DNA from: Escherichia phage phi92
Reading direction: 5' to 3' (one strand)
Length of the DNA stretch: 64,000 nucleotides
Sequence record: NC_023693.1
Shown here: piece after piece, positions 13,596 through 56,875 of the stretch
Layout: each line of letters starts with the position of its first letter
How positions within the stretch are numbered: position 1 is the first letter of the stretch
The notes under the pieces: generated by a model
What the model saw: the letters and a program-made list of their open reading frames with translations, nothing else
What the model was told of the DNA's origin: nothing
The model's database searches: none
Made by a program: the position numbers and the translations under genes

Positions 13596-15755
13596 ATGAA
13601 ACAGGCTATTTTTACTGTAACTCGAAATACGAGAGTAAATGCCAGTTCATTCAGCTATAAGACCGTCGATGGAACGGCGGTCGCTGGTAGAGATTATGTA
13701 GCTAAACAGGGAACAGTAACGTTCCCTTCTGATGCAGATTCTGCTACTGTGGTGGTTGATGTATATGAACGTCCGGCAAACTCTTTAGATCTTTATTTTA
13801 CTCTTGAGATTACTAGCATAAGTCAAAATAACATGATGATCAATGAAGAAATTCGTTGTGTTATTACGACTAATCAATCGAATACAACCCCGCTAACTTG
13901 GCCTGTTGTGAAGTCTAGAATGTTTGATCCTAAGTTTTGGACAATAGATTCTCAATCAACAGAAAGTTGTTCTATTATCTCTAATGGTGATTCTTTCACA
14001 GCAAGAATGGTTAATAGGACAGTGGCTGGTCTTGCTGGGATTATTTGGTCAACTTACGATAAATATGATCACAAAGGATTAGGCTACCAAGAACATTCTG
14101 ACTTAAGTAAAGAGAAACTTTGGTTTAAAATGGAACTTAGTCAAGGTGTTCCTGGATTAAAAGAAGAAAAATTAATACCATCCTTAACAGTGACACTGAA
14201 GGATGAAACAGTTCATTATGTATCTCTAAACTTTTATGCAGAAGAAGTTTCAGAAGATGGTAAGACAGCAACAATCAAACTAGATTTCTCAAATTTAAAA
14301 TCTGGGCCAGAAAATGATATTGTTGTTGACACTACACAGATAGATAATATGTTCTTCTCCTTGATCTCCGCAAGGTATCAAGAAATTGAAGATGTTATAC
14401 CTGTAGACAATATGGATCTTTCCTTTAAGTTTACCATACTAGAGCCTGATACTGGTTACAGTATGATGAATATGGGTAATTTAAATGTTCCGGCGCACAC
14501 CATAAGAATGTGTACATCTTATGATGATATGTATAACCTAACCCCGGAGCGAGTTATTTCTAATACCTATAGATTAGGTTATAGGGATATGATTAACCAT
14601 TATAATGGTATGTCACACTATTATCAATTCAGTTGGGATGCTGGCTCTAATAAATGGGCTTTGAACAGAACAGAATATTTAAACCCAGCAACAGAAGCCT
14701 GGTTTGATAATTTCCACGCTAATGCAAAAGCTATGGGCTACACAGTAATGAACTCCTTAAGTTTTGAACTTATGAGTACAGTGTGTCCTGTAGAATGGGT
14801 ACAACATACTTGGAATGATGATCTGGCTGCTACAGGTTATGAGCCACCAAGTTATGTTTTATCTCCTTCAATTGATGAAGGGATGAATTATTTACAAGGT
14901 GTAATAAATAAGATAGCTTCTATATCCGCTGCTAATGATCTTCCGGTTATTATTCAGGTTGGTGAACCGTGGTGGTGGTATAACACAGCTACCAATCTAC
15001 CGTGTATTTATGATTATACAACCAAAGTTGCATTTAATAATGAAACTGGATTATATGCACAAGATGTTGGTACAGTTAAAAATTATAAAACTGGTACACC
15101 ATATGATGAATATTATGCATTCCTATCTAAAACATTAGGACTGCGTGTTGCTAAATTTGCAACAGATACCAGATTAGCATACCCTGGAGCGAAAGTTACA
15201 TTGTTACCATTTGTACCATCCATCTTAGGTAATGGTATGATGGAGTTTGTTAACTTCCCTAAAGATTATTATATTCCAGAAAACTTTGACTTTTATTGTT
15301 CAGAATGTTATGATTGGTTGTTGGAAGGTAAGATGGAAAGATCTTTTGACGCTATCACAATACCTAATGAGCAACTAGGTTTTAGTTATGATAAGATACA
15401 TTATCTTGCAGGGTTTGTTCCAGATGCAACTCTAGCACCATTATATGGCTTTGATCCTGAATCAAACTATAGGACATATTTGTGGAAAATGATTATAGGT
15501 AATATTGTATTGAATGACCAGAAGTTTGTTGGTTTATATCAATACATATGGGCTTATCCACAAATAATGCATGATTCAATAACTGTTCTTAATTCAAAAT
15601 CCCAAGTTTTTTATATGGGTAATGTGCCTTTGAATTGCTATTTGCAAGATATCACTCTTAAACAGGTAAATGTTACGATTGCTACTATAAGCGGAATTAC
15701 ACTAGCCACTAAATCTGGAGAAGATTTAGTAACAACACAAAAATTTTATATATAG
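13596..15755 (+). CDS. large tail-associated protein
   Basis: 719 aa ORF with RBS; no recognised motif. Confidence 0.4.
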   Translation: MKQAIFTVTRNTRVNASSFSYKTVDGTAVAGRDYVAKQGTVTFPSDADSATVVVDVYERPANSLDLYFTLEITSISQNNMMINEEIRCVITTNQSNTTPLTWPVVKSRMFDPKFWTIDSQSTESCSIISNGDSFTARMVNRTVAGLAGIIWSTYDKYDHKGLGYQEHSDLSKEKLWFKMELSQGVPGLKEEKLIPSLTVTLKDETVHYVSLNFYAEEVSEDGKTATIKLDFSNLKSGPENDIVVDTTQIDNMFFSLISARYQEIEDVIPVDNMDLSFKFTILEPDTGYSMMNMGNLNVPAHTIRMCTSYDDMYNLTPERVISNTYRLGYRDMINHYNGMSHYYQFSWDAGSNKWALNRTEYLNPATEAWFDNFHANAKAMGYTVMNSLSFELMSTVCPVEWVQHTWNDDLAATGYEPPSYVLSPSIDEGMNYLQGVINKIASISAANDLPVIIQVGEPWWWYNTATNLPCIYDYTTKVAFNNETGLYAQDVGTVKNYKTGTPYDEYYAFLSKTLGLRVAKFATDTRLAYPGAKVTLLPFVPSILGNGMMEFVNFPKDYYIPENFDFYCSECYDWLLEGKMERSFDAITIPNEQLGFSYDKIHYLAGFVPDATLAPLYGFDPESNYRTYLWKMIIGNIVLNDQKFVGLYQYIWAYPQIMHDSITVLNSKSQVFYMGNVPLNCYLQDITLKQVNVTIATISGITLATKSGEDLVTTQKFYI

Positions 15756-15763
15756 GAGTAAAA

Positions 15764-18520
15764 ATGTCAACTACAATTACTAATTTACCCGAAACATCAA
15801 AAGTTAATAGTTCTGATTACCTGGTTTTAGACCAGCCTGATAAGACTGTTAAAAGCACAGTTTCCAACTTTCTTGCTGACACTGGGGTGGTTTTAGCCAC
15901 CCAGCTAAAAGATACTTCTGGTGCTACCAAGTATCCAGAACTTCAAATGTCGCGCTGGAGAGATGAAGGTGATCCTAGAGGATGGGGAGCAGTAGGTGAC
16001 GGAGCAACAGACGATACTAATGCTATAACACAGCTTCTTGCTGCTATGCCTGATGGATGGATTATTGATGGGCGTAATCTCACTTTCAAGGTTACAACAC
16101 TACCAGATATAAGCAAGTTTAAAAACGCTGCTTTTGTTTACGAGCGTATTGTTGGACAACCCCTTACTTATGTATCTGAAGGTTTCTTCGATGGAAATCT
16201 GACAAAGATTACGGATACACCATTTTACAATGCTTGGACGCAAGATAAGACGTTTGTTTATGATAATGTTATATATGCACCATTTATGGCTGGCGAACGT
16301 CATGGTGTACAAAACCTCCATGTAGCGTGGGTTAAATCAGGAGATGATGGACAAACTTGGTCTATGCCAGAATGGTTAACTCCAATTCATCCTGATTATA
16401 CAGCAGACAAAGTTAACTATCATTGTATGAGTATGGGTGTATGTGGTAATCGCCTATATGCAGTCATCGAAACCCGTTACTTATCTAACATGCGATTGAA
16501 GAAAGCAGAACTTTGGTCACGTCCAATGCCTTATTATAGAAGGCCAACTGGAGGTATAACAATTAGTTCTGGGTCTACTACGGCGACGATTGTTTTAAAA
16601 AAGCATGGTCTTAAAGTTGGAGATGCTGTTAACTTTTCCAATTCGGGTGCAACTGGTGTATCTGGAAATATGACTGTTGCATCTGTAATTAACAAGGATA
16701 CATTTACGGTTACATTAGCAAGGGCTGCCACATCTAATATAGATAATACAGGAACTACTTGGCATTTTGGAACACGTTTCTGGGATAGCCCTTGGGAAAT
16801 TACAGAATTACCAGATGTTGCCTATTCTACTAATGCAGACTTATGTGTTACAGAAACCCATAGTTTTACAGTTATAGATGATGATAATTACACTTTTGCT
16901 GTGGGTTATCACAATGGTGATATTTCCCCAAGAAGATTAGGTATTTTGTACTTCAATAATGCTTACTCTGACCCAAGTTCTTTTACTCGTAGAACAATTA
17001 GTCAAGAATATGCTGACAATGCAGCAGAACCCTGCATTAAATATTACGATGGAATTTTATATTTAACTACCAGGGGTACTTCAACTTCTGCTGCTGGTTC
17101 TACATTAGCAATGAGTGCTGACCTTGGAGAAAACTGGAATTACTTAAGATTTCCTAACAACGTTCATCATACAAACCTACCATTTGCAAAAGTTGGTGAT
17201 TATCTTTATATCTTTGGTACAGAACGTTCATTTGGAGAGTGGGAAGGGCAAGAACTAGATAATAGATATAAAGGTACGTATCCTCGAACGTTTATGTGCA
17301 AGATTAATGTATCTTCATGGCCTGTATCTTTATCCAATGTTCAATGGTTTAATATCACTGATCAGATATATCAAGGGCATATTGTTAATTCTGCATGTGG
17401 CGTTGGTTCGGTATGTGTTAAAGATGGCTGGTTATATTATATCTTTGGAGGTGAAGATTTCTTATCTCCTTGGTCTATCGGAGATAATAGTAAAAAATTA
17501 TGGTACAAGCATGATGGTCATCCAGCCGATTTATATAGCTATAGACTAAAGATTACCGAACATGATTTTGTATCACGTGACTTCAAATATGGAGCTACGC
17601 CAAACCGTACATTGCCTGTATCTATGGGTACAGATGGGGTAAGGCATGTCTCAGCCCCTGTAACTTTTGATAATGATGTACAGATGTACTCTTTAACAGT
17701 TACTGGTCTTGAGCATGATGGGACACAACAATCTGCCGTTAGAGTAAAATTAGATGGTGATTATGGGGTTATTGCAAAAAATATCCCAATAAAAAATCCT
17801 TCTGAACAGCGACTAATCTTATGTGGAGGAGAAACTCCTTACACTACTGATGGATCGTTATTACAATTGTATGGTTCAAACCATACGTATCCAAACAGAG
17901 CAATTTTATATGCCCCAGGAGGAGCATATACACAAAATAATTTCATGCCGTACTTAGATGGACAAGTTTCATTAGGTGGTGCATCTAATAGATGGTCAGA
18001 AGTGTATGCATCTACAGGAACCATTAATACTTCAGACGGAACATTAAAAACTAAACCTACAGAGATTGAAGATATTTTACTGAAAGCATGGGAAGATATT
18101 CATGTAATCTCTTACCAATGGCTTAGTGCTGTCGCGGAGAAAGGAGATTCTGCGCGTATTCATTTTGGTGTTATCGCTCAAGATGTAAGAGATATTCTGA
18201 TTAATTATGGTTTAATGGATGAAAATAGTACTGATTGTAAGTATGCTTTTCTATGTTATGATGAATACCCTGCTATGTATGATAGTGTTGTTACGGGACA
18301 AAAAGAAATCACTTTACTTGACGATGAAGGAAATAATGTAATTGATGAAGAAGGTAATCCAGTAACAATTGTAGAAGATGTTGTAGAAACTATCGAAGTA
18401 ATTCCAGCAGGATCGCGATGGGGTATCCGCGCTGACCAAATGTTTTTTATTGAGATGGCTTATCAACGTAAAAAGTTAAAAGCTCTTGAAGAAAGACTTG
18501 CAACCCTAGAAAGTAAATAA
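15764..18520 (+). CDS. tailspike/fibre with pectate-lyase-like motif, Asp-box repeats and C-terminal intramolecular chaperone (peptidase S74-like)
   Basis: WGAVGDGATDDTNAITQLL motif; Asp-boxes SGDDGQTWS and SADLGENWN; C-terminal region with NTSDGTLKTK and a coiled-coil tail, as in self-cleaving chaperone domains of endosialidase/T5 pb1-type fibres. Confidence 0.55.
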   Translation: MSTTITNLPETSKVNSSDYLVLDQPDKTVKSTVSNFLADTGVVLATQLKDTSGATKYPELQMSRWRDEGDPRGWGAVGDGATDDTNAITQLLAAMPDGWIIDGRNLTFKVTTLPDISKFKNAAFVYERIVGQPLTYVSEGFFDGNLTKITDTPFYNAWTQDKTFVYDNVIYAPFMAGERHGVQNLHVAWVKSGDDGQTWSMPEWLTPIHPDYTADKVNYHCMSMGVCGNRLYAVIETRYLSNMRLKKAELWSRPMPYYRRPTGGITISSGSTTATIVLKKHGLKVGDAVNFSNSGATGVSGNMTVASVINKDTFTVTLARAATSNIDNTGTTWHFGTRFWDSPWEITELPDVAYSTNADLCVTETHSFTVIDDDNYTFAVGYHNGDISPRRLGILYFNNAYSDPSSFTRRTISQEYADNAAEPCIKYYDGILYLTTRGTSTSAAGSTLAMSADLGENWNYLRFPNNVHHTNLPFAKVGDYLYIFGTERSFGEWEGQELDNRYKGTYPRTFMCKINVSSWPVSLSNVQWFNITDQIYQGHIVNSACGVGSVCVKDGWLYYIFGGEDFLSPWSIGDNSKKLWYKHDGHPADLYSYRLKITEHDFVSRDFKYGATPNRTLPVSMGTDGVRHVSAPVTFDNDVQMYSLTVTGLEHDGTQQSAVRVKLDGDYGVIAKNIPIKNPSEQRLILCGGETPYTTDGSLLQLYGSNHTYPNRAILYAPGGAYTQNNFMPYLDGQVSLGGASNRWSEVYASTGTINTSDGTLKTKPTEIEDILLKAWEDIHVISYQWLSAVAEKGDSARIHFGVIAQDVRDILINYGLMDENSTDCKYAFLCYDEYPAMYDSVVTGQKEITLLDDEGNNVIDEEGNPVTIVEDVVETIEVIPAGSRWGIRADQMFFIEMAYQRKKLKALEERLATLESK

Positions 18521-18548
18521 TACCGCTTCGGCGGTATTTCAATCTTTA
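18521..18548 (+). terminator. intrinsic terminator
   Basis: TACCGC-ttcg-GCGGTA followed by TTTCAATCTTTA. Confidence 0.5.
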
Positions 18549-18568: not shown

Positions 18569-18835
18569 ATGGTTAAAGAGAAAAATGGTTTTAAAAAATT
18601 TATTCGAGGTATGTTTTGTACATATCCTGATAATAAAGTCAGTTCTACTAAAGTTTGGAATGCTATTGGTATGATTGTTATGTCCAGTATGTTTATTTAT
18701 TTGGGAATTGATAAAGAAATTCCTGAATGGATGGGCTGGGCTTTTGTTTTTATGATCACACCATCCAGATTAATGAAGAATTTAATAGATTTACGTTGGG
18801 GCAGATCACCTGCCCCTGATAAGGAGGATAACTAA
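18569..18835 (+). CDS. small membrane protein (two predicted TM helices)
   Basis: 88 aa with hydrophobic stretches VWNAIGMIVMSSMFIYLGI and WMGWAFVFMITPS. Confidence 0.4.
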   Translation: MVKEKNGFKKFIRGMFCTYPDNKVSSTKVWNAIGMIVMSSMFIYLGIDKEIPEWMGWAFVFMITPSRLMKNLIDLRWGRSPAPDKEDN

Positions 18836-22521: not shown

Positions 22522-22863
22522 ATGGAGCTAACAGAAGTATGGGATATCGCTAAAGAGGCGATTATCCCTCTTATTGGTGTAATCTGGGTGGTCTTCAAAC
22601 AGAAGATAGATGATATAGCAAGTGATTTGGATAAAATGGAAGACAAATACCGCGAACTAGAAAAGAAGTTGGTGTTTGTTGAATCCACTTATGCTACCAA
22701 AGCAGAACTTGCTCAAATGCTTAACCAGATCAACTCTACATTAATGGCAAATAATACTGCCTTAGAACAGAAGATTGAAAAAATAATGGATTTAAAAAAT
22801 GCTCCTGTTCAATTAATGCTAGAGGAGATTACGAAGCGCACACAAAGTAAGGACAAAAATTAA
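22522..22863 (+). CDS. small protein with N-terminal TM helix and coiled coil
   Basis: 113 aa; AIIPLIGVIWVVF hydrophobic segment followed by a coiled-coil region. Confidence 0.35.
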   Translation: MELTEVWDIAKEAIIPLIGVIWVVFKQKIDDIASDLDKMEDKYRELEKKLVFVESTYATKAELAQMLNQINSTLMANNTALEQKIEKIMDLKNAPVQLMLEEITKRTQSKDKN

Positions 22864-25277
22864 TGGCGAATTTTCCAACATATCCTGCTACGACACTAGA
22901 ACAAGGTGTTGATCTGGTTATATTCTCGTCTAACCAGATGCATGATGTTATTAATGGGGATGCTACAGCAACTGTAGAAACCGAAACAGGTTTAATACCT
23001 ACACTGCGTAAAGCACTTGTTGATAACTTCTTCTTTAAGAGTCCTGTTGCTTGGTCAGCAGGATCAACTGAAACTGTATTTAACCAGTTACGTTATTTTG
23101 AAAACGGTATCTTGAGTGGGTACTATTATGCCCCATCTGCCACTACTGCGAACCCTGTACCTATGCAGGGCACACCTGTAGGGGACAGTAACTGGACTCT
23201 GTACGCTCTTAAAACTGAACAGTTAGCTTCAGATGTGTATCCTTGGTATTTTAAAGGTGCTACAGGATATGAAACAGAAATCAGTCCTCCTTATATCTTT
23301 GATAATGCTATTGTCACCATTAACGGTGTAATTCAGATTCAAGGTGAAGCATTTACTATCAAAGATAGTAAAATTATTCTGGCAGAACCATTAGGTTTAG
23401 ATCCGTCTACTGGTCTACCTAACAAATTGTTTGCTTTTATTGGTAAAACAACAGCCTCTACTTCTTACGTAGAGAAAAACCTTTTGTCATCTACCACTGG
23501 TGCAGCAATGGTTGGTCTTCCATCTGGAGGCAACCTGTTACAAGCTCAATACTTTGTAACGCCTGAGCAGTTTGGTGCAATTGGTGATGGAGTTACCGAT
23601 GATACTCAAGCAATTTTAAAAACTATTACTTTCGCTAACACGAATAACATTCAAGTACGTGCAGATAAGAATTATAGATTCACAAGCTCAATTGCTATGT
23701 CTGGTGTTCGTTGGTATGGTGGTACATTCACTGGTAACGGTGGAACAATGATTTCTACTGTGTCCTGTTGGATGGAAAACGTTCGCTTTGAAAAATGTTA
23801 TGTTAAGATGTTAGGTGGTGATTGCCGATTCTATCGTAATATCTTCTCCAACGCAACATCTACAGCAGCATTCTTAATGCAAGCAATGACAAGTGAAGGT
23901 ACGTTGGACTTCAGTTACAACGAAATGTATGGTTGTAAATATGCGATCCTGCAACAAGGTACTGGAGAAGTAATGACCTATGGGCGTTACTCTAACAACT
24001 ATATTCACGATATCAAAGGTGATGCTATTGAACTTAACGTAGTTCAAAAACACTACACTGAAGGTTTGATTATCGAGAATAACCACATTGCTAACGTAGA
24101 TGCTTCTGGACAAGGTGCAAACTGGGGTATTGGTATTGGTGTAGCAGGTAGTGGCCCATATGGTGTTGATGTTCCTGATTCACAATATGTACGTAACTTC
24201 AGTATCGTTGGGAATAGGGTTTACAATTGCCGTCAATGTCTACACGTTGAAATGGGTAAAAACTTCACGATACGTGATAATGAAGTTTATCCTAACACAG
24301 CAGTTTCAACAGGTACAGGTTTAACTACTTGTGGTGTTGCATTATACGGATGCCAAGATTTTGAAGTTGATGGTTTAACTGGTTATCTGCTTAATGATCC
24401 ATCTGTTTCAACACGCATGGTCTTTATTGACTGGGGTGTTAACAATGGTAGATATGCGGGGCCACCAATTAACTTTACAATTAAGAATTTGGATATTCCA
24501 GAATCTTCAATTGAGATTGCAACATCTGGATCAGATGCCTGGGAAAACTCTACAATTGTTAGTAATATCAATTGTAATGTTTTTAAATGGCGTGGGCTAC
24601 CATCTAGCTCTACCTTTAATAATATTCGTTGCCGTAGTATTGACTTTATTGGTCAACACGGAAGCGGAGAAGGAAGTGGTGGCGGTTTCTATACTCGCAG
24701 CCAATTCACGTATATGAAGTGGGTAGGATGTACAGCACTTAGCGGAGATGAAACAACAGTTTCTTTTGCTAAAATCTACACTGATCGTTGCGATCAGGTT
24801 GGAAATAACTTTGGTGTTCCAACTGCTGTTGATGGTACAGGTCATCGTGGGCCAGTTTTAACTACTATTTCTGAACAATATTTTACAGCTTATGATGAAT
24901 TCCCAGGTGGGCGTGAATTCCCTACTGGAACAGTTATTCATTGTGCAAGCGGTAAAAAACATGTTGTTACAGTAGGTGGTGCTTTCTTTAGTGACAACGA
25001 GAAAATAAAAGCAACTGTTACAGGTCAAACCTATCTACAGTCTAATGCTTTAAACTGGGCTAGTAATGGCTACGCTAAAGCAGCAGGTACTAAGATTGTT
25101 ATTCCAGGTGCAGGTGCAAATGGCGGCGATCTTGTGACAACTATAGCACGTGCTACATACGTGACAAATAGTTTGTACACAATAGATATTGCAGATCCAA
25201 TTGTAACACCTACAGCAGAGAATACACAAATTAAAGCTCTGAATCCTGTTACTTTTGTTACTGTCAATAATGCTTAA
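22863..25277 (+). CDS. tailspike protein with right-handed beta-helix (pectate lyase-like), putative polysaccharide depolymerase
   Basis: FGAIGDGVTDDTQAILKTI motif typical of Pectate_lyase_3-type tailspikes; 804 aa; Asn/Gly-rich beta-strand repeats. Confidence 0.55.
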   Translation: MANFPTYPATTLEQGVDLVIFSSNQMHDVINGDATATVETETGLIPTLRKALVDNFFFKSPVAWSAGSTETVFNQLRYFENGILSGYYYAPSATTANPVPMQGTPVGDSNWTLYALKTEQLASDVYPWYFKGATGYETEISPPYIFDNAIVTINGVIQIQGEAFTIKDSKIILAEPLGLDPSTGLPNKLFAFIGKTTASTSYVEKNLLSSTTGAAMVGLPSGGNLLQAQYFVTPEQFGAIGDGVTDDTQAILKTITFANTNNIQVRADKNYRFTSSIAMSGVRWYGGTFTGNGGTMISTVSCWMENVRFEKCYVKMLGGDCRFYRNIFSNATSTAAFLMQAMTSEGTLDFSYNEMYGCKYAILQQGTGEVMTYGRYSNNYIHDIKGDAIELNVVQKHYTEGLIIENNHIANVDASGQGANWGIGIGVAGSGPYGVDVPDSQYVRNFSIVGNRVYNCRQCLHVEMGKNFTIRDNEVYPNTAVSTGTGLTTCGVALYGCQDFEVDGLTGYLLNDPSVSTRMVFIDWGVNNGRYAGPPINFTIKNLDIPESSIEIATSGSDAWENSTIVSNINCNVFKWRGLPSSSTFNNIRCRSIDFIGQHGSGEGSGGGFYTRSQFTYMKWVGCTALSGDETTVSFAKIYTDRCDQVGNNFGVPTAVDGTGHRGPVLTTISEQYFTAYDEFPGGREFPTGTVIHCASGKKHVVTVGGAFFSDNEKIKATVTGQTYLQSNALNWASNGYAKAAGTKIVIPGAGANGGDLVTTIARATYVTNSLYTIDIADPIVTPTAENTQIKALNPVTFVTVNNA

Positions 25278-25318: not shown

Positions 25319-27280
25319 GTGATTTTAACACGTCCAAATAGTGCCATTGCAGACATGGTAGAGTCTCGCTATAGAAAGCGTAGAAGTTTTGCAAGTGGTT
25401 TTACCTTAAGAGATGCTCGTGAAGCATTGCTCTTTGAAACTGACGGTAACTACTATCAGTGGAAAGGTTCTCTACCTAAAGTTGTACCTGCTAACTCTAC
25501 TCCTACATCTACTGGAGGGATTTCAGATACAGCTTGGAAAAATGTGGGTAATGCAGATGACATTGCTCAAATAGAATCAGAATTAGATGCTATTGAAGCT
25601 GAAATTGAAGATCTTAGAGAATCCATCCCAGAAGCTGGTAAATCAGCTTACCAAATTGCCGTAGACAATGGTTTCCAAGGTACTGAGACACAGTGGTTGG
25701 CTTCTTTAAAAGGTGATCCAGGTGCTCCATTAAAGCTACTAGGGACGCTATCTAATACCAACCAATTACCTACAACTGGAAACAATGCAGGGGATGCATG
25801 GATTGTAGGCGAGAATATGTATGCTTGGGATGGTACTGCTTGGAGAAAAGTAAACTCACAGGGGCCAGAAGGTAAATCTGCTTATGAAGTATGGCTTGCA
25901 GCAGGAAACGAAGGTACAGAACTAGATTATCTTGCCGCAATTAAAGGTGATAAAGGGGAGCCTGGCCCAGAGGGGCCACAAGGTGTGCCAGGTAATAATG
26001 CTAATGGTTTTGATTACCAAGGCGCAGCTAATTCCGTTTCAGATCTTCCTTCTGCATCTCCTGGAAACACATCTCAAGCATGGAGTATTGGTACATATCT
26101 ATACGTGTCAAACGGTGTAGAATGGATCAATATGGGCGCTATAGTGGGGCCAAAAGGAGATAAAGGCGACAAAGGAGATAAGGGTAACACTGGTGATTCA
26201 GCTTATCAAGTCTGGTTAAATGCTGGTAACGTTGGTACTATTGACGAATATATTGCCTCTCTGAAAGGAGAAAAAGGTGATAAGGGAGACAAGGGTGATC
26301 AAGGTGCACAGGGTATACAAGGCTTGACGGGGCCAACTGGTGCAGGGTTGACCATTATTGACATTCTGACTAGCACTTCTGAACTACCACAAACTGGAGA
26401 AGATGGTGATGGTTATCTGATCAATAATGAACTTTGGGTCTGGTTGCAAGGAGCCACAGAGTGGACAAATGTTGGTCGTTTAGCTGGTACTCCAATCACT
26501 GCAAAAGGATACGTTGCGTCTGCAAGTGCACTTCCTCCTACAGCCAATTACGGTGATGCTTATCTGACGGAAGATACAGGTCATCTTTACATTTACACCT
26601 ATGATGAACAAACTCAAACTGCTGAATATGTAGATATGGGTAGTTTGAAAGGTGATAAGGGTGAAAAAGGTGACGCTGGTACTAACGGTACAGACGGTGC
26701 AACTTGGATTGTTAAAACAACAGATCCAATCTCTAGTGATGGTAAACAAGGTGATTATGCCTTTAATATCTCCACTGGCGAGGTGTTCTTAAAAACATCT
26801 GCAACTATCTGGACTTCTCAAGGTACACTACCTAGTATCACAGATGCACCTAGTGATGGTAAGACTTATGCTCGTAAAGATGGAGCATGGGAAGAACTCA
26901 CTAATTCTGTAGATGGTCAAGATATAGTTCCAACAAAAGTAACAACTAATTTTATAGAGGTTACAGCATATACTAACAATTCTGTTACAGGGGACTGGAC
27001 ACCTCCAGGAACACATAACATGAATGTGTTGAATCTTACTGGTAACTCTACTATAAAAGCATGGCCTGGTGTCGAAGATAGCACAAAACCTAAACCATTC
27101 TCTGCAATAGTTTATCTTATCCAAGATGCCACTGGAGGTCGTACTGTTACTTTAGATCCATCTTACAAAGTAATTGGTTCCAGTGATATTAATACAGATC
27201 CTAACGGAGTAACAATACTACAACTAACATATTGTGGTGTTGGCGATTACGTGGATGCTATTGTTGCTAAACGCACATAA
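25319..27280 (+). CDS. tail fibre protein with collagen-like Gly-X-Y repeats
   Basis: GTG start with RBS; Gly-X-Y runs GPKGDKGDKGDKGNTGD, GEKGDKGDKGDQGAQGIQGLTGPTGAG, GEPGPEGPQGVPG and KGDKGEKGDAGTNGTDG. Confidence 0.6.
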   Translation: MILTRPNSAIADMVESRYRKRRSFASGFTLRDAREALLFETDGNYYQWKGSLPKVVPANSTPTSTGGISDTAWKNVGNADDIAQIESELDAIEAEIEDLRESIPEAGKSAYQIAVDNGFQGTETQWLASLKGDPGAPLKLLGTLSNTNQLPTTGNNAGDAWIVGENMYAWDGTAWRKVNSQGPEGKSAYEVWLAAGNEGTELDYLAAIKGDKGEPGPEGPQGVPGNNANGFDYQGAANSVSDLPSASPGNTSQAWSIGTYLYVSNGVEWINMGAIVGPKGDKGDKGDKGNTGDSAYQVWLNAGNVGTIDEYIASLKGEKGDKGDKGDQGAQGIQGLTGPTGAGLTIIDILTSTSELPQTGEDGDGYLINNELWVWLQGATEWTNVGRLAGTPITAKGYVASASALPPTANYGDAYLTEDTGHLYIYTYDEQTQTAEYVDMGSLKGDKGEKGDAGTNGTDGATWIVKTTDPISSDGKQGDYAFNISTGEVFLKTSATIWTSQGTLPSITDAPSDGKTYARKDGAWEELTNSVDGQDIVPTKVTTNFIEVTAYTNNSVTGDWTPPGTHNMNVLNLTGNSTIKAWPGVEDSTKPKPFSAIVYLIQDATGGRTVTLDPSYKVIGSSDINTDPNGVTILQLTYCGVGDYVDAIVAKRT

Positions 27281-27319: not shown

Positions 27320-27928
27320 ATGTATCCTATTCCTTTATTTATGTCAACAACATCAGCTTCAGTAGTAACAGCTACATCTATAACTACTTCCTCTATTGGT
27401 ATTGCAATAGTTGGTGGTAAAAAACAACTGACATACACAGTTACACCGGAAGATGGTGCATTATTTGATATAGCTTTTTCATCTTCAGATAATACCAAAA
27501 TGGTTATAGATAATAGTGGTATGATGGAGTTTGTTGCCGAAGGTGGTTTTGATGCAATAATGACAGCTAAAAATAATTTAGGTGCTGTCTTAACTGATCA
27601 ATCTGGTGGCTATGCTTCAGAATTAAGTGTGTACACTGAAAGTCTATCGGCTATGGATGTAGGCACTACTCAACAGTTGGTTGCTACAATCAGTCCAGAA
27701 GGTGCTAAAGACCTTCCAGATATGGTAATTACATACACCACAACAGATCCAGAAGTAGCTACTGTAAGCCCTACAGGGTTAATAACTGCTCTTAAAGATG
27801 GCGGTTGCCGTATAGGTTGTACTGCAACGTATCAAGGAACAGTTGTGGCCTCTGATAGGTCTTATTTAGGTGTTAATGCTATTCCTGTTATTTCTAATGT
27901 AACAGCCGTATCTTTAATAACTCAATAG
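27320..27928 (+). CDS. bacterial Ig-like (Big_2-type) domain protein
   Basis: Pattern GTTQQLVATISPEGA...VATVSPTGLITALKDGGCRIGCTATYQG resembles Big_2 domains; 202 aa. Confidence 0.45.
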   Translation: MYPIPLFMSTTSASVVTATSITTSSIGIAIVGGKKQLTYTVTPEDGALFDIAFSSSDNTKMVIDNSGMMEFVAEGGFDAIMTAKNNLGAVLTDQSGGYASELSVYTESLSAMDVGTTQQLVATISPEGAKDLPDMVITYTTTDPEVATVSPTGLITALKDGGCRIGCTATYQGTVVASDRSYLGVNAIPVISNVTAVSLITQ

Positions 27929-28094
27929 CTACAGATGATTCGTTCATTAAAGAAGTTATTGTCTTTGCTGGACAAGATAACGTAAATGCACACTTTACAG
28001 AACTATCTGGTGCAAATAAAGCAGCAATGAGTAGCACAACAGCCCGTAATGCATATGCTACGCAACGTGGTTTAGCAAATGCTGAAGTTCTTCC

Positions 28095-28982
28095 GTGTTA
28101 AATACAGCTTCTGGATCATCAGCAGCAGATAAATATGCTGACGATAAAGCTGGAACAGGTACACCAGATAACTACTGGTATGATCTGGATAACACAGCAG
28201 ATGGGCCATGCTTAACTAACTTTATCACTAAAGTCACACCTTATGCAAGTAAGGTTAAAGCAATTATTTGGGGACAAGGTGAAAATGATGCTGTATCAGC
28301 ATCTTCGACTGTTGCAGGTAGGTACAGTAACACTACACGTTACCATGATGCTACGATAGCTATCTTTGATAAGATGCGTACAATAGTTCCTGCTTCTCAA
28401 GCAAAAATTGTTTGGCAGATCCTAGGACGTTCTTATTTATATGGTGTAGAAGTTAATGGTGTGGATTGGCAGAAGTACAGAAATGTACAAAGAACCATCT
28501 CTACAGCACGTGATGATGTTATCATTGGTTCTTGGGTAGATGGTGCTGAACGTTACAGTGGTTATGTTTATGAAGAAGGTATTGATGGTCGTATCCATTA
28601 TATTTCTTCTGTATACCAAACAGCAGCTACAAAACTTGCTAAATCAGCAGCAGACGGTACAGATTTAACATCAACGTCACCTGTTTGGGTTGATATGTCT
28701 GTTCCAACAGGAGGAGCCGCTGTAAGACAAGCTAACCAAGATGTAATTATCTCTTGGGAACCAGCAGGATATACTAAACATTACTTCCGAAATGTAAACG
28801 TCCTCACAGCAGCAATTCTTACAGAACAAACCCTGGATACTAACACTTACACATTTACTTATGCAGATCAGGTTGAACAATATGGATTTGCAGCAGGTAC
28901 AACAGTGTTTGATGTTGCACACTATGATGCTGATAATGACGTGTTATCACCTCTTGTCAGATTTACAGTCAATGTTACATAA
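28095..28982 (+). CDS. hypothetical protein, possible SGNH-like carbohydrate esterase
   Basis: GTG start; motifs WGQGENDA (GxND-like) and DVAHYD (DxxH-like); an upstream open frame in another reading frame contains VIVFAGQDN. Confidence 0.3.
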   Translation: MLNTASGSSAADKYADDKAGTGTPDNYWYDLDNTADGPCLTNFITKVTPYASKVKAIIWGQGENDAVSASSTVAGRYSNTTRYHDATIAIFDKMRTIVPASQAKIVWQILGRSYLYGVEVNGVDWQKYRNVQRTISTARDDVIIGSWVDGAERYSGYVYEEGIDGRIHYISSVYQTAATKLAKSAADGTDLTSTSPVWVDMSVPTGGAAVRQANQDVIISWEPAGYTKHYFRNVNVLTAAILTEQTLDTNTYTFTYADQVEQYGFAAGTTVFDVAHYDADNDVLSPLVRFTVNVT

Positions 28983-54329: not shown

Positions 54330-54800
54330 TTAGTCAGATTCCCAAATGTTGTCTTTCTTAATCCACATTCGTTGATTATCTGAACCTCTATAACGTTTCG
54401 TTGTTGGTTGATTCATATCATACTTACCATCTATCACTATGTCAACCAGTTTTTTAATTTTTTCTGGAATTTCCTCAAAAAGATATCCTGTATATAAGAC
54501 AATATCTTTTTTGTTTCCAAAACAATCTCTTACCTTCTCAAGAACATACTCTACAGTGTCAATGTTCTCTTTGTCAAGAGGTTCACCACCTAAAACTGTT
54601 AATCCTTTAATGAAAGGTCGAGATAAATCTTTCAAGATAAGATCTAATGTTTCAGTAGTGAACTCTTGTCCGTAGTTATACGACCAGGCTTTCTGGTTAA
54701 AGCAGCCACGGCAACCGTGGCTACAACCGCTCACCCACAAAGAGCATCTTACACCGTCACCGTTGAGCATGTCAACAGGTTCATATCCGGCGTAATTCAA
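54330..54800 (-). CDS. nrdG: anaerobic ribonucleoside-triphosphate reductase activating protein (radical SAM)
   Basis: Cys cluster CSHGCRGC (CxxxCxxC), 156 aa, immediately downstream of nrdD with ATGA overlap. Confidence 0.7.
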   Translation of the reverse strand: MNYAGYEPVDMLNGDGVRCSLWVSGCSHGCRGCFNQKAWSYNYGQEFTTETLDLILKDLSRPFIKGLTVLGGEPLDKENIDTVEYVLEKVRDCFGNKKDIVLYTGYLFEEIPEKIKKLVDIVIDGKYDMNQPTTKRYRGSDNQRMWIKKDNIWESD

Positions 54801-55738
54801 AAATGTTTCTCCCTTTCTAGTACCTCTTGCATTTTACCTTTATTATAAGGGCGAGAGTTAGGGGCAGAAAGGTATCCTGACACTCTTCTGATCACAGATA
54901 TGGATTCTTCTTCATGATTACCGCAACTTGGACACTCGAAGCCTTTAGCCGTTGCTTTAAATTCACCATGAAAACCACATTTGAAACACTGATCTACAGG
55001 TTGGTTCACGCCAAAATAAGGAATTTTATTGTAGGCATAATCTACAAGAGTTTCCAGTGCTTGCAAGTTATTTTTAAGGTTTGGTGTTTCTACATAACCT
55101 ATGTTCCCACCATTACTAATTTGTGCAAAACCTTCCTCATAATCCCACTTTTGGAACGGGGTAGTGTGCATCCATACAGGTTGATGGAAAGAGTTTGTCA
55201 AGTAGTCACGATCAATAGAACCAGGATAGCGATCATTTAACGCTTTGGCAAATTTATAGCACAAGGATTCTGCTGGTGTTCCATACAAACTAAAAGCTAA
55301 ACCAGAACGTTCTTTAAATGTGCCACAGATATCCTTCATATATTGAAGGATGTTTTTACCCATTGCTTTTGGATTGGTGTTACCTGGGTATAAAATCTCC
55401 ATAGCTTCTGCTAAACCTACATAACCGATACTAATAGAGGCATAACCACCTTCGAATAGTTTACCAATCTCTTCATTAGCTTCTAATCGAGCTAAAGCCC
55501 CTTCCATAAACAATGTAGGGTTTTGAGATGCTTTGGTATGTCTAATACGGTTAACACGTAGCATATGTGCCTTATACGCCATCTCCATATGTTGTTCCAA
55601 CAGTTCAGTAAATAAGATGCCCTTTTCACGGGACTCTGCTGCAATGATAGGTAAGTTTAAAGAAACTACGCCTAAGTTGAAACGACCATCATATTTTTCA
55701 CCTTGCTCTGTTGCATAGTATGACAAGAAACTTCTACA
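54797..55738 (-). CDS. nrdD: anaerobic ribonucleoside-triphosphate reductase, exon 2
   Basis: Begins CRSFLS... in continuity with exon 1; C-terminal zinc ribbon (CFKCG...CPSCG) and glycyl-radical region RRVSGYL. Confidence 0.7.
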   Translation of the reverse strand, partial: CRSFLSYYATEQGEKYDGRFNLGVVSLNLPIIAAESREKGILFTELLEQHMEMAYKAHMLRVNRIRHTKASQNPTLFMEGALARLEANEEIGKLFEGGYASISIGYVGLAEAMEILYPGNTNPKAMGKNILQYMKDICGTFKERSGLAFSLYGTPAESLCYKFAKALNDRYPGSIDRDYLTNSFHQPVWMHTTPFQKWDYEEGFAQISNGGNIGYVETPNLKNNLQALETLVDYAYNKIPYFGVNQPVDQCFKCGFHGEFKATAKGFECPSCGNHEEESISVIRRVSGYLSAPNSRPYNKGKMQEVLEREKHF

Positions 55739-56017
55739 CATTATGTTCAAAGTGGCTCGCAAGGCCACTCCCGCACCATTACGTGCTGCTGCATGTCACC
55801 ATGCAGATCAGACTATATCTTCATGCTTAAAGCATGTCTACCATTTGGGGTGTCATAGGCTTACACCCTACGCTGCTACATTCATCACAGCTAGTCGTTA
55901 GGCATTTCGTAACAGTACCCCCTTCTTCTGTGTTGGGAGTTCTGTTACGTTTAGCACGGGATTGTCTCGTTGAGAGTTCCCCCGTTTAGGCAGATTTTAC
56001 ATGAGCAGTTATAGTTT
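55739..56017 (-). ncRNA. group I self-splicing intron (ORF-less) interrupting nrdD
   Basis: 279 nt with no ORF separating two in-frame nrdD halves; exon 1 ends in U and the intron ends in G; paired elements present (ACGACTA/TAGTC P7-like, CTGCATG-GTGA-CATGCAG hairpin with GNRA loop, CATGC-TTTAA-GCATG hairpin); resembles my recollection of the T4 nrdD (sunY) intron core. Confidence 0.65.
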
Positions 56018-56875
56018 ACCCATGCTTGTGACGCGACCATCTGAAGATCCTGTAACTTCTTTGTTTAAAGGTACAGAGATAAAATCAGGATAAATGCGTT
56101 CAGCACAACACTCCATTGCCAGTTGCTTCAAATCATAGTTTGGATCGCCAGCTTTCATGTTAACACCATCTTCCAAGAAGAAGATAACTTTAGGAAACAC
56201 AGGAGTTACCCTATCTTTTCCTAATCCTTGTTTGTGCACCATTAGGTAGTTTTTAGTGATCATTCTACCAAAAGCAGAGGTATCCAAACCTAAACTAATT
56301 GTTATAAAAGGTGACTGACCATTTACACTCATTAGAGTGTTCACCTGGTAGATTAAAGTTTGCATTGCATCATAGACCTGTTTATCTACCATACGCATAG
56401 CAATATCATAATCGCCAACATCGGCATATATTTTATTAAAACTTGCTTTAACGTATTGACTAAGCCCAGTATCAACATGTGCACAAGTTTGTCCACCATA
56501 TTGGCTAGAAGCTACTGCTTGAATAATTTGAGTTAGGACAGTAGTCGCTACACCGATAGATTTTGGTTTTTCAATATGTGCATTACCAATACGGAAACCG
56601 TTCTCAAGCATATCTTGGTAATTTACCAGGCAACAATTAGTTAAAGGTGAGAGTAAATAATCTAAATCGTGAATGTGACCATACCCACTTTTATGCCATT
56701 CTGCCAGATCTTCCGGTAAAATATGGGTCATTGCCATGTGCTTGCTTAGGATACCTGCTAGTAAATCTCGGTGAGTATTAACAATCATTGCAGGTTTGTT
56801 TGCATTTTCACGAGTAAATTCTTCGGATGTTTGTTCGAGGAATCCGATTACATCCTCATATAGTTTTTGGGTCAT
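56018..56875 (-). CDS. nrdD: anaerobic ribonucleoside-triphosphate reductase, exon 1
   Basis: N-terminal NrdD-like sequence (RDLLAGILSKH, HIHDLDY, TNCCLV, IEKPKSIGVAT); the ORF track runs two codons (KL) into the intron before the stop. Confidence 0.7.

Follow-up and report, generated by a model that had tools for sequence, protein, structure and literature searches.

The 64,000-nucleotide (nt) stretch of the Escherichia phage phi92 genome analyzed here (NC_023693.1; hereafter the window) carries, at positions 15764–18520 on the plus strand, a single ATG-initiated open reading frame (ORF) of 918 amino acids (aa) plus a stop codon. The original prediction, made from short motifs in the letters, had described the product as a tailspike combining a pectate-lyase-like motif, sialidase-type Asp-boxes and a self-cleaving C-terminal chaperone; the ORF and all the strings quoted were recovered where they had been placed.

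An exact-sequence look-up revealed that the 918-aa product was letter-for-letter Phi92_gp143 (CBY99572.1 / YP_009012475.1), and that the two ORFs upstream were exactly Phi92_gp141 and gp142. The coding sequence is complete, with an AGGAG Shine-Dalgarno sequence 8 nt upstream of the ATG at 15764. When gp143 was compared with Protein Data Bank (PDB) structures, the three chains of entry 4HIZ, the phi92 ‘Endosialidase’, showed 100% identity to aa 75–756 over all 682 aligned residues, and the K1F endosialidase structures 1V0E and 3GVL, among others, came next with E-values of about 1e-239. The protein also matched PHROG 1171, ‘tail spike protein’, at 1.2e-301. We regard it as virtually certain that the ORF encodes EndoN92 (phi92 gp143), a tailspike that is a homotrimeric endo-N-acetylneuraminidase (endosialidase) of family GH58; none of its 918 aa differs from EndoN92. 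This protein has previously been crystallized and biochemically characterized, so that the finding is already known, and the author of the original prediction missed that gp143 is a solved and named enzyme.

Every defining feature that can be tested in sequence, whether for phage endosialidases or for the S74 chaperone domain, is present in gp143, and nothing in its sequence speaks against an endosialidase tailspike. Two caveats attach to this assignment. The enzyme activity and autocleavage of gp143 rest on published work, taken from secondary citations, and its position in the virion was itself inferred in a 2026 cryo-electron microscopy (cryo-EM) study, which describes the gp143 density as ‘not discernible’. 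Minus-strand ORFs of 61–73 aa within the gp143 gene were considered as well and were without support.

Endosialidase domains, active site and alternative readings

To delimit the domains, Pfam profiles were compared with gp143 at their curated cut-offs. Five endosialidase/S74 domains scored above these cut-offs and tiled aa 76–816, with E-values (4.5e-214, 3.4e-63, 1.8e-37, 1.3e-33 and 1.4e-12) far past chance. Ahead of them lies a linker conserved among endosialidases (aa 52–75, nt 15917–15988; YPEL..RW.DE.D.RGWGA), and similarity to the K1F, CUS-3 and siphovirus endosialidases starts at about aa 42. The endosialidase N-terminal extension (End_N_terminal, PF12218; aa 76–142, nt 15989–16189) matched its full-length profile at 114.9 bits and carries the sequence GDGATDDT. 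It is followed by the six-bladed beta-propeller catalytic domain (End_beta_propel, PF12217; aa 143–597, nt 16190–17554), which scored 710.6 bits (cut-off 24; E = 4.5e-214) and covered positions 1–366 of the 367 in the profile. A lectin-like beta-barrel (End_beta_barrel, PF12195; aa 256–338, nt 16529–16777) is inserted into the propeller and matched the whole of its profile (1–83/83) at 127.6 bits. The sialidase-type propeller with two Asp-boxes that had been proposed from the motifs was thus recovered both by the profile and by an Asp-box regular expression (S-x-D-x-G-x-x-[WFY]), whose sole two matches in gp143, at aa 192–199 and 451–458, lie in the same two sites, SGDDGQTWS (aa 192–200, nt 16337–16363) and SADLGENWN (aa 451–459, nt 17114–17140).

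The best point of comparison for the active site is endoNF of phage K1F (PDB 1V0E, 3GVL and 3GW6), which shares 53.7% identity with gp143 over 884 aligned positions, with the same domain order. We mapped residues by aligning gp143 in MAFFT to CAD44528.2, the 1064-aa product of K1F sia. The deep-mutational-scan paper on K1F identifies H350, R549, E581, R596 and R647 as catalytic and mutation-intolerant. Each of these five residues (5/5) was kept in gp143: the catalytic Glu581 corresponds to Glu422 (codon at 17027–17029), H350 to His180 (16301–16303), R549 to Arg390 (16931–16933), R596 to Arg437 (17072–17074) and R647 to Arg488 (17225–17227). The two proteins have in common the active-site E, R, R, H and R, as well as the helper Arg and the Ser-Lys dyad discussed below.

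This conservation is consistent with what is in print on activity. According to published work citing Schwarzer et al. 2015, gp143 is a bifunctional endosialidase that hydrolyses the polysialic acid of K1 and K92 capsules at alpha2,8 as well as alpha2,9 linkages. The literature also reports that EndoN92 occurs on the virus particle, and gp143 has been inferred to form the distal part of the baseplate ‘fiber I’. A sialic-acid-directed depolymerase, as proposed from the motifs, is the right function, in agreement with both the endosialidase domains and this published hydrolysis. In the mechanism that we propose, aa 76–597, comprising the propeller and the lectin-like beta-barrel, would cleave internal linkages of the polysialic acid capsules of E. 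coli K1 and K92, with Glu422, Arg437 and Arg488 probably forming the cleavage site together with His180 and Arg390. Degradation of the capsule would in turn give the myovirus access to its outer-membrane receptor.

An alternative reading is a generic exo-sialidase of the BNR family, or a spike that is catalytically dead and purely capsule-binding. Besides the two Asp-boxes, a BNR_2 (PF13088) match and the replacement of two residues in the polysialic-acid site of the K1F stalk (S848 by T694 and Q853 by L699) can be cited in its favor. The BNR_2 match, however, reached 13.5 bits, under its cut-off of 31.4, whereas the specific endosialidase propeller model scored 710.6 bits; the mutation-intolerant active-site residues of K1F were all kept; and endo-activity on both linkage types is published for gp143. 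Oligomeric products of polysialic acid cleavage have also been reported, which refutes an exo-acting or inactive enzyme. We consider this alternative very improbable, and an exo-sialidase of the BNR family was rejected because the BNR_2 match was below threshold and limited to the Asp-box region.

The pectate-lyase-like motif of the original prediction raises a second alternative, a capsule depolymerase with a right-handed beta-helix, which appears scarcely credible. The GDGxTDDT signature is indeed present, within GAVGDGATDDT (aa 75–85, nt 15986–16018, by string search); it recurs in the phi92 colanidase gp150 (aa 236–247), and Pect-lyase_RHGA_epim (PF12708, Pectate_lyase_3) gave a weak match at aa 74–93 (E = 0.035). 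That match, however, reached 14.3 bits, under its cut-off of 27, over 20 residues (profile positions 7–26 of 213), in a region where the endosialidase N-terminal extension scored 114.9 bits, and the likeness between gp143 and gp150 was limited to a 22-residue local match. Since the Pfam match is sub-threshold, we take GDGxTDDT to be a short motif that opens the N-terminal extension, with no pectate-lyase domain attached to it. The rest of gp143 is a beta-propeller identical to the solved structure 4HIZ, and a pectate-lyase beta-helix was refuted by this identity together with the domain assignment. Of the profile searches that had been suggested as a check, Peptidase_S74 thus came out above its cut-off, whereas BNR_2 and Pect-lyase_RHGA_epim fell below theirs.

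The stalk, the C-terminal chaperone and its cleavage site

Downstream of the endosialidase propeller, gp143 continues into a stalk of the triple-beta-helix / beta-prism type (End_tail_spike, PF12219; aa 600–756, nt 17561–18031), which scored 212.9 bits and ends at Thr756. Relative to K1F endoNF, conservation in the protein is lowest in the stalk (40.8%). In the K1F stalk polysialic-acid site R837 is kept as R683, while the positions of S848 and Q853 are occupied by T694 and L699. EndoNF is reported to be alpha2,8-specific and processive, whereas EndoN92 reportedly cleaves alpha2,9 linkages as well and acts non-processively; the substitutions at T694 and L699 would fit such non-processive behavior.

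The remaining 162 residues (aa 757–918, nt 18032–18517) form the C-terminal intramolecular chaperone / autoprotease of the S74 type, for which PF13884 scored 48.1 bits (cut-off 22) over aa 757–816. A search of the PDB with gp143 retrieved 3GW6, the endoNF chaperone domain, at 1.5e-70, and the phi29 gp12 and T5 L-shaped-fibre chaperone domains also matched the C-terminal region. The alignment with 3GW6 extends over aa 702–918 (217 residues; 2.8e-57) and includes the last residue and the terminal helix. An S74-type chaperone resembling those of endosialidase and T5 pb1, as suggested from the motifs, is borne out by these matches.

In endoNF, Ser911 and Lys916 are the autocleavage dyad and Arg897 is the helper residue, and autoproteolysis by the Ser-Lys dyad after chaperoning is the established mechanism. 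By alignment, Ser911 corresponds to Ser757 of gp143 (codon at 18032–18034), Lys916 to Lys762 (18047–18049) and Arg897 to Arg743 in the stalk; 3GW6, the structure of an S911A mutant, has an engineered Ala where gp143 has Ser757. Because Ser757, Lys762 and Arg743 are all conserved with endoNF, we infer that gp143 likewise has a chaperone that excises itself. The scissile bond predicted from the alignment is Thr756|Ser757, at nt 18031|18032, within the string NTSDGTLKTK (aa 755–764, nt 18026–18055, by string search). The crystallized phi92 chain in 4HIZ stops exactly at Thr756, and RefSeq gives aa 757–918 of gp143 as a 162-aa mature peptide, ‘endoN92-CTD’; both lend indirect support to cleavage at this bond. 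The cut originally predicted at about 18034 falls in the Ser757 codon and is thus right to within one codon. In the corresponding model, aa 600–756 would form an intertwined stalk, and aa 757–918 would act as an intramolecular chaperone that nucleates trimerization and folding of the stalk. The chaperone would then remove itself by autoproteolysis through the Ser757-Lys762 dyad between Thr756 and Ser757, and would be released after the trimer has folded.

The same Ser-x4-Lys dyad and terminal helix are found in the S74 domains of T5 pb1 (4UW8), phi29/GA-1 gp12 (3GUD), K5 lyase and the eukaryotic MYRF, whose passengers are unrelated to that of gp143 (fibres, appendages, a transcription factor) and are not sialidases. 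A tblastn search yielded 111 phage records whose match covers at least 80% of gp143, and hundreds more that match in the C-terminal chaperone domain alone. Among the 111 are podoviruses (K1F, 52.9%, and K1E/K1-5-like phages), siphoviruses (UTI89UKE1, 74.1%), the prophage CUS-3 (59.9%) and the myoviruses described below.

Exchange of the spike cassette

The closest relatives of gp143 are the Phapecoctavirus endosialidases (phAPEC8, ESCO5, nepoznato, REC, ECO340P2 and others), which share 96–97% DNA and protein identity with it across the whole gene, differ by a 3-residue insertion near aa 213 that brings them to 921 aa, and are encoded at the same place, between homologues of gp142 and gp144. 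The closest DNA match in the phage collection searched was 96.9% identical, phi92 itself not being among the matches. The flanks tell a different story. In Phapecoctavirus (nepoznato, ESCO5, phAPEC8 and others) DNA identity is 96–99% within the gene and 70–80% in the flanks, so that the gp143 gene is much closer to Phapecoctavirus than its genomic background is. By contrast, the sister phages in the genus of phi92 itself, Justusliebigvirus (KMB37, alia, VEcB and others), are 98–100% identical to the window on either side of gp143; their DNA homology ends at nt 15915 and restarts at nt 18595, with an unrelated spike between.

The crossovers were placed by a three-way site analysis of three genomes. 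Up to about 15686 the window follows the Justusliebigvirus backbone, whereas between about 15916 and 18606 it follows a Phapecoctavirus-like donor. The left crossover was placed at about 15690–15915, a region that is conserved in all three genomes and covers the end of gp142 together with codons 1–51 of gp143, and the right crossover at 18606|18607, 13 codons inside gp144. Consistent with this, tblastn matched aa 1–54/55 to proteins of EF1-1 and KMB37 at 91–94% identity, the remainder of these proteins being unrelated. On the basis of the homology borders and the crossover positions, the first ~51 residues are a conserved anchor and the rest is an exchangeable cassette. This N-terminal anchor (aa 1–51, nt 15764–15916) is common to the differing spikes that sister phages carry at the same baseplate position, and its presumed role is attachment: the first ~51 residues would dock the trimer at the periphery of the baseplate. 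K1F endoNF, with its 1064 aa, has a T7-gp17-like particle-binding domain of about 200 residues at its N-terminus, whereas phi92 has the 51-residue anchor instead.

We propose that aa 1–51 of gp143, together with the conserved 3′ end of gp142, serve as a universal docking and recombination arm for swaps of whole receptor-destroying cassettes in the Stephanstirmvirinae, and that homologous recombination with a Phapecoctavirus-like donor gave phi92 its endosialidase, a proposal whose chances of being right or wrong we judge to be about even. The poor conservation of the spike in Justusliebigvirus is already in print, as is the 96.7% identity of the phAPEC8/ESCO5 enzyme; relative to the literature, only the precise junctions and the anchor hypothesis would be new.

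The replacement spike of KMB37 (vB-Eco-KMB37; 15764–17828 of the compared KMB37 stretch) has the same 51-aa N-terminus and is split between two overlapping ORFs (283 and 408 aa), so that it may carry a frameshift. It ends in FNTTSDERLK, which contains an S74-like Ser..Lys motif, and Pfam found no domain in this alternative spike.

Genomic surroundings and significance

The gp143 gene is part of a baseplate/tail-fibre cluster that includes gp141, gp142, gp143, gp144 (a small membrane protein), baseplate wedge proteins, a gpH-like fibre, gp150 and gp151. Overlapping the gp143 stop codon on the plus strand, and within the swapped cassette, is a perfect 8-base-pair hairpin with a TTCG loop (18519–18538; AATACCGC-TTCG-GCGGTATT). 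Since the downstream T-run on the plus strand is weak, this hairpin is a candidate for either a terminator or an RNA-stabilizing element. Around gp143, neither promoter-like sequences (17, compared with 15.6 in shuffled sequences) nor terminator-like sequences (3, compared with 2.0) were in excess. Upstream, gp142 (13596–15755) carries a Calx-beta domain along with NCTSP_N and TIM-barrel_NCTSP, both ‘non-contractile tail sheath’ domains (274.9 bits), though the tail of the phage is contractile. Downstream, the colanidase gp150 (22863–25277) has a C-terminal TSP Ig-like domain in addition to its GDGxTDDT, and in gp151 (25319–27280) a TSP1/Gp66-type domain at the N-terminus occurs together with collagen repeats and a fibritin-C-like end.

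A tail-protein gene (27320–28982) is spread over three frames, where the sister phage arall has one 628-aa ORF (421–2307 of the compared stretch). In phi92, 226 nt are gone after nt 27908, between CAGCCGT direct repeats, with the loss of an FN3-like domain, and two additional nt (TG) are present at 28095–28096; the broken gene is either a pseudogene or an artefact of phi92 sequencing. Its C-terminal part (28095–28982) gave a faint match to SASA (sialate O-acetylesterase), at 16.3 bits against a cut-off of 24.8, and also matched PDB 9LC0, ‘non-contractile tail sheath’, at 1e-24. If the faint match were true, a sialate esterase beside an endosialidase might be relevant to O-acetylated K1 capsules.

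The GC-skew changes sign at about 28–29 kb, where plus-strand structural genes give way to minus-strand genes for replication and nucleotide metabolism. Among the latter, the anaerobic ribonucleotide reductase gene nrdD is interrupted by a group I intron on the minus strand (55789–56063), which matched the full-length model RF00028 at 70.6 bits. The two halves of nrdD are an ORF at 56009–56875, corresponding to positions 1–263 of the NRDD profile, and an ORF at 54797–55768, corresponding to positions 263–562 and the glycyl-radical domain; an nrdG-like activase (54330–54800) comes after nrdD. This arrangement is analogous to that of the T4 nrdD intron. ARAGORN detected no tRNA genes in the 64,000-nt window.

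Endosialidases are classic capsule depolymerases that enable phages to infect K1 and K92 E. coli, the agents of neonatal meningitis and urinary tract infections. They also serve as reagents for stripping polysialic acid from neural cells, and the S74/MYRF autoprocessing domain has its prototype in their C-terminal chaperone. Because the phi92 enzyme had already been crystallized and characterized, its identification in the window brings no new biology. Its value is that of a positive control, in which a reading of motifs in raw sequence gave both the right function and the right cleavage site.

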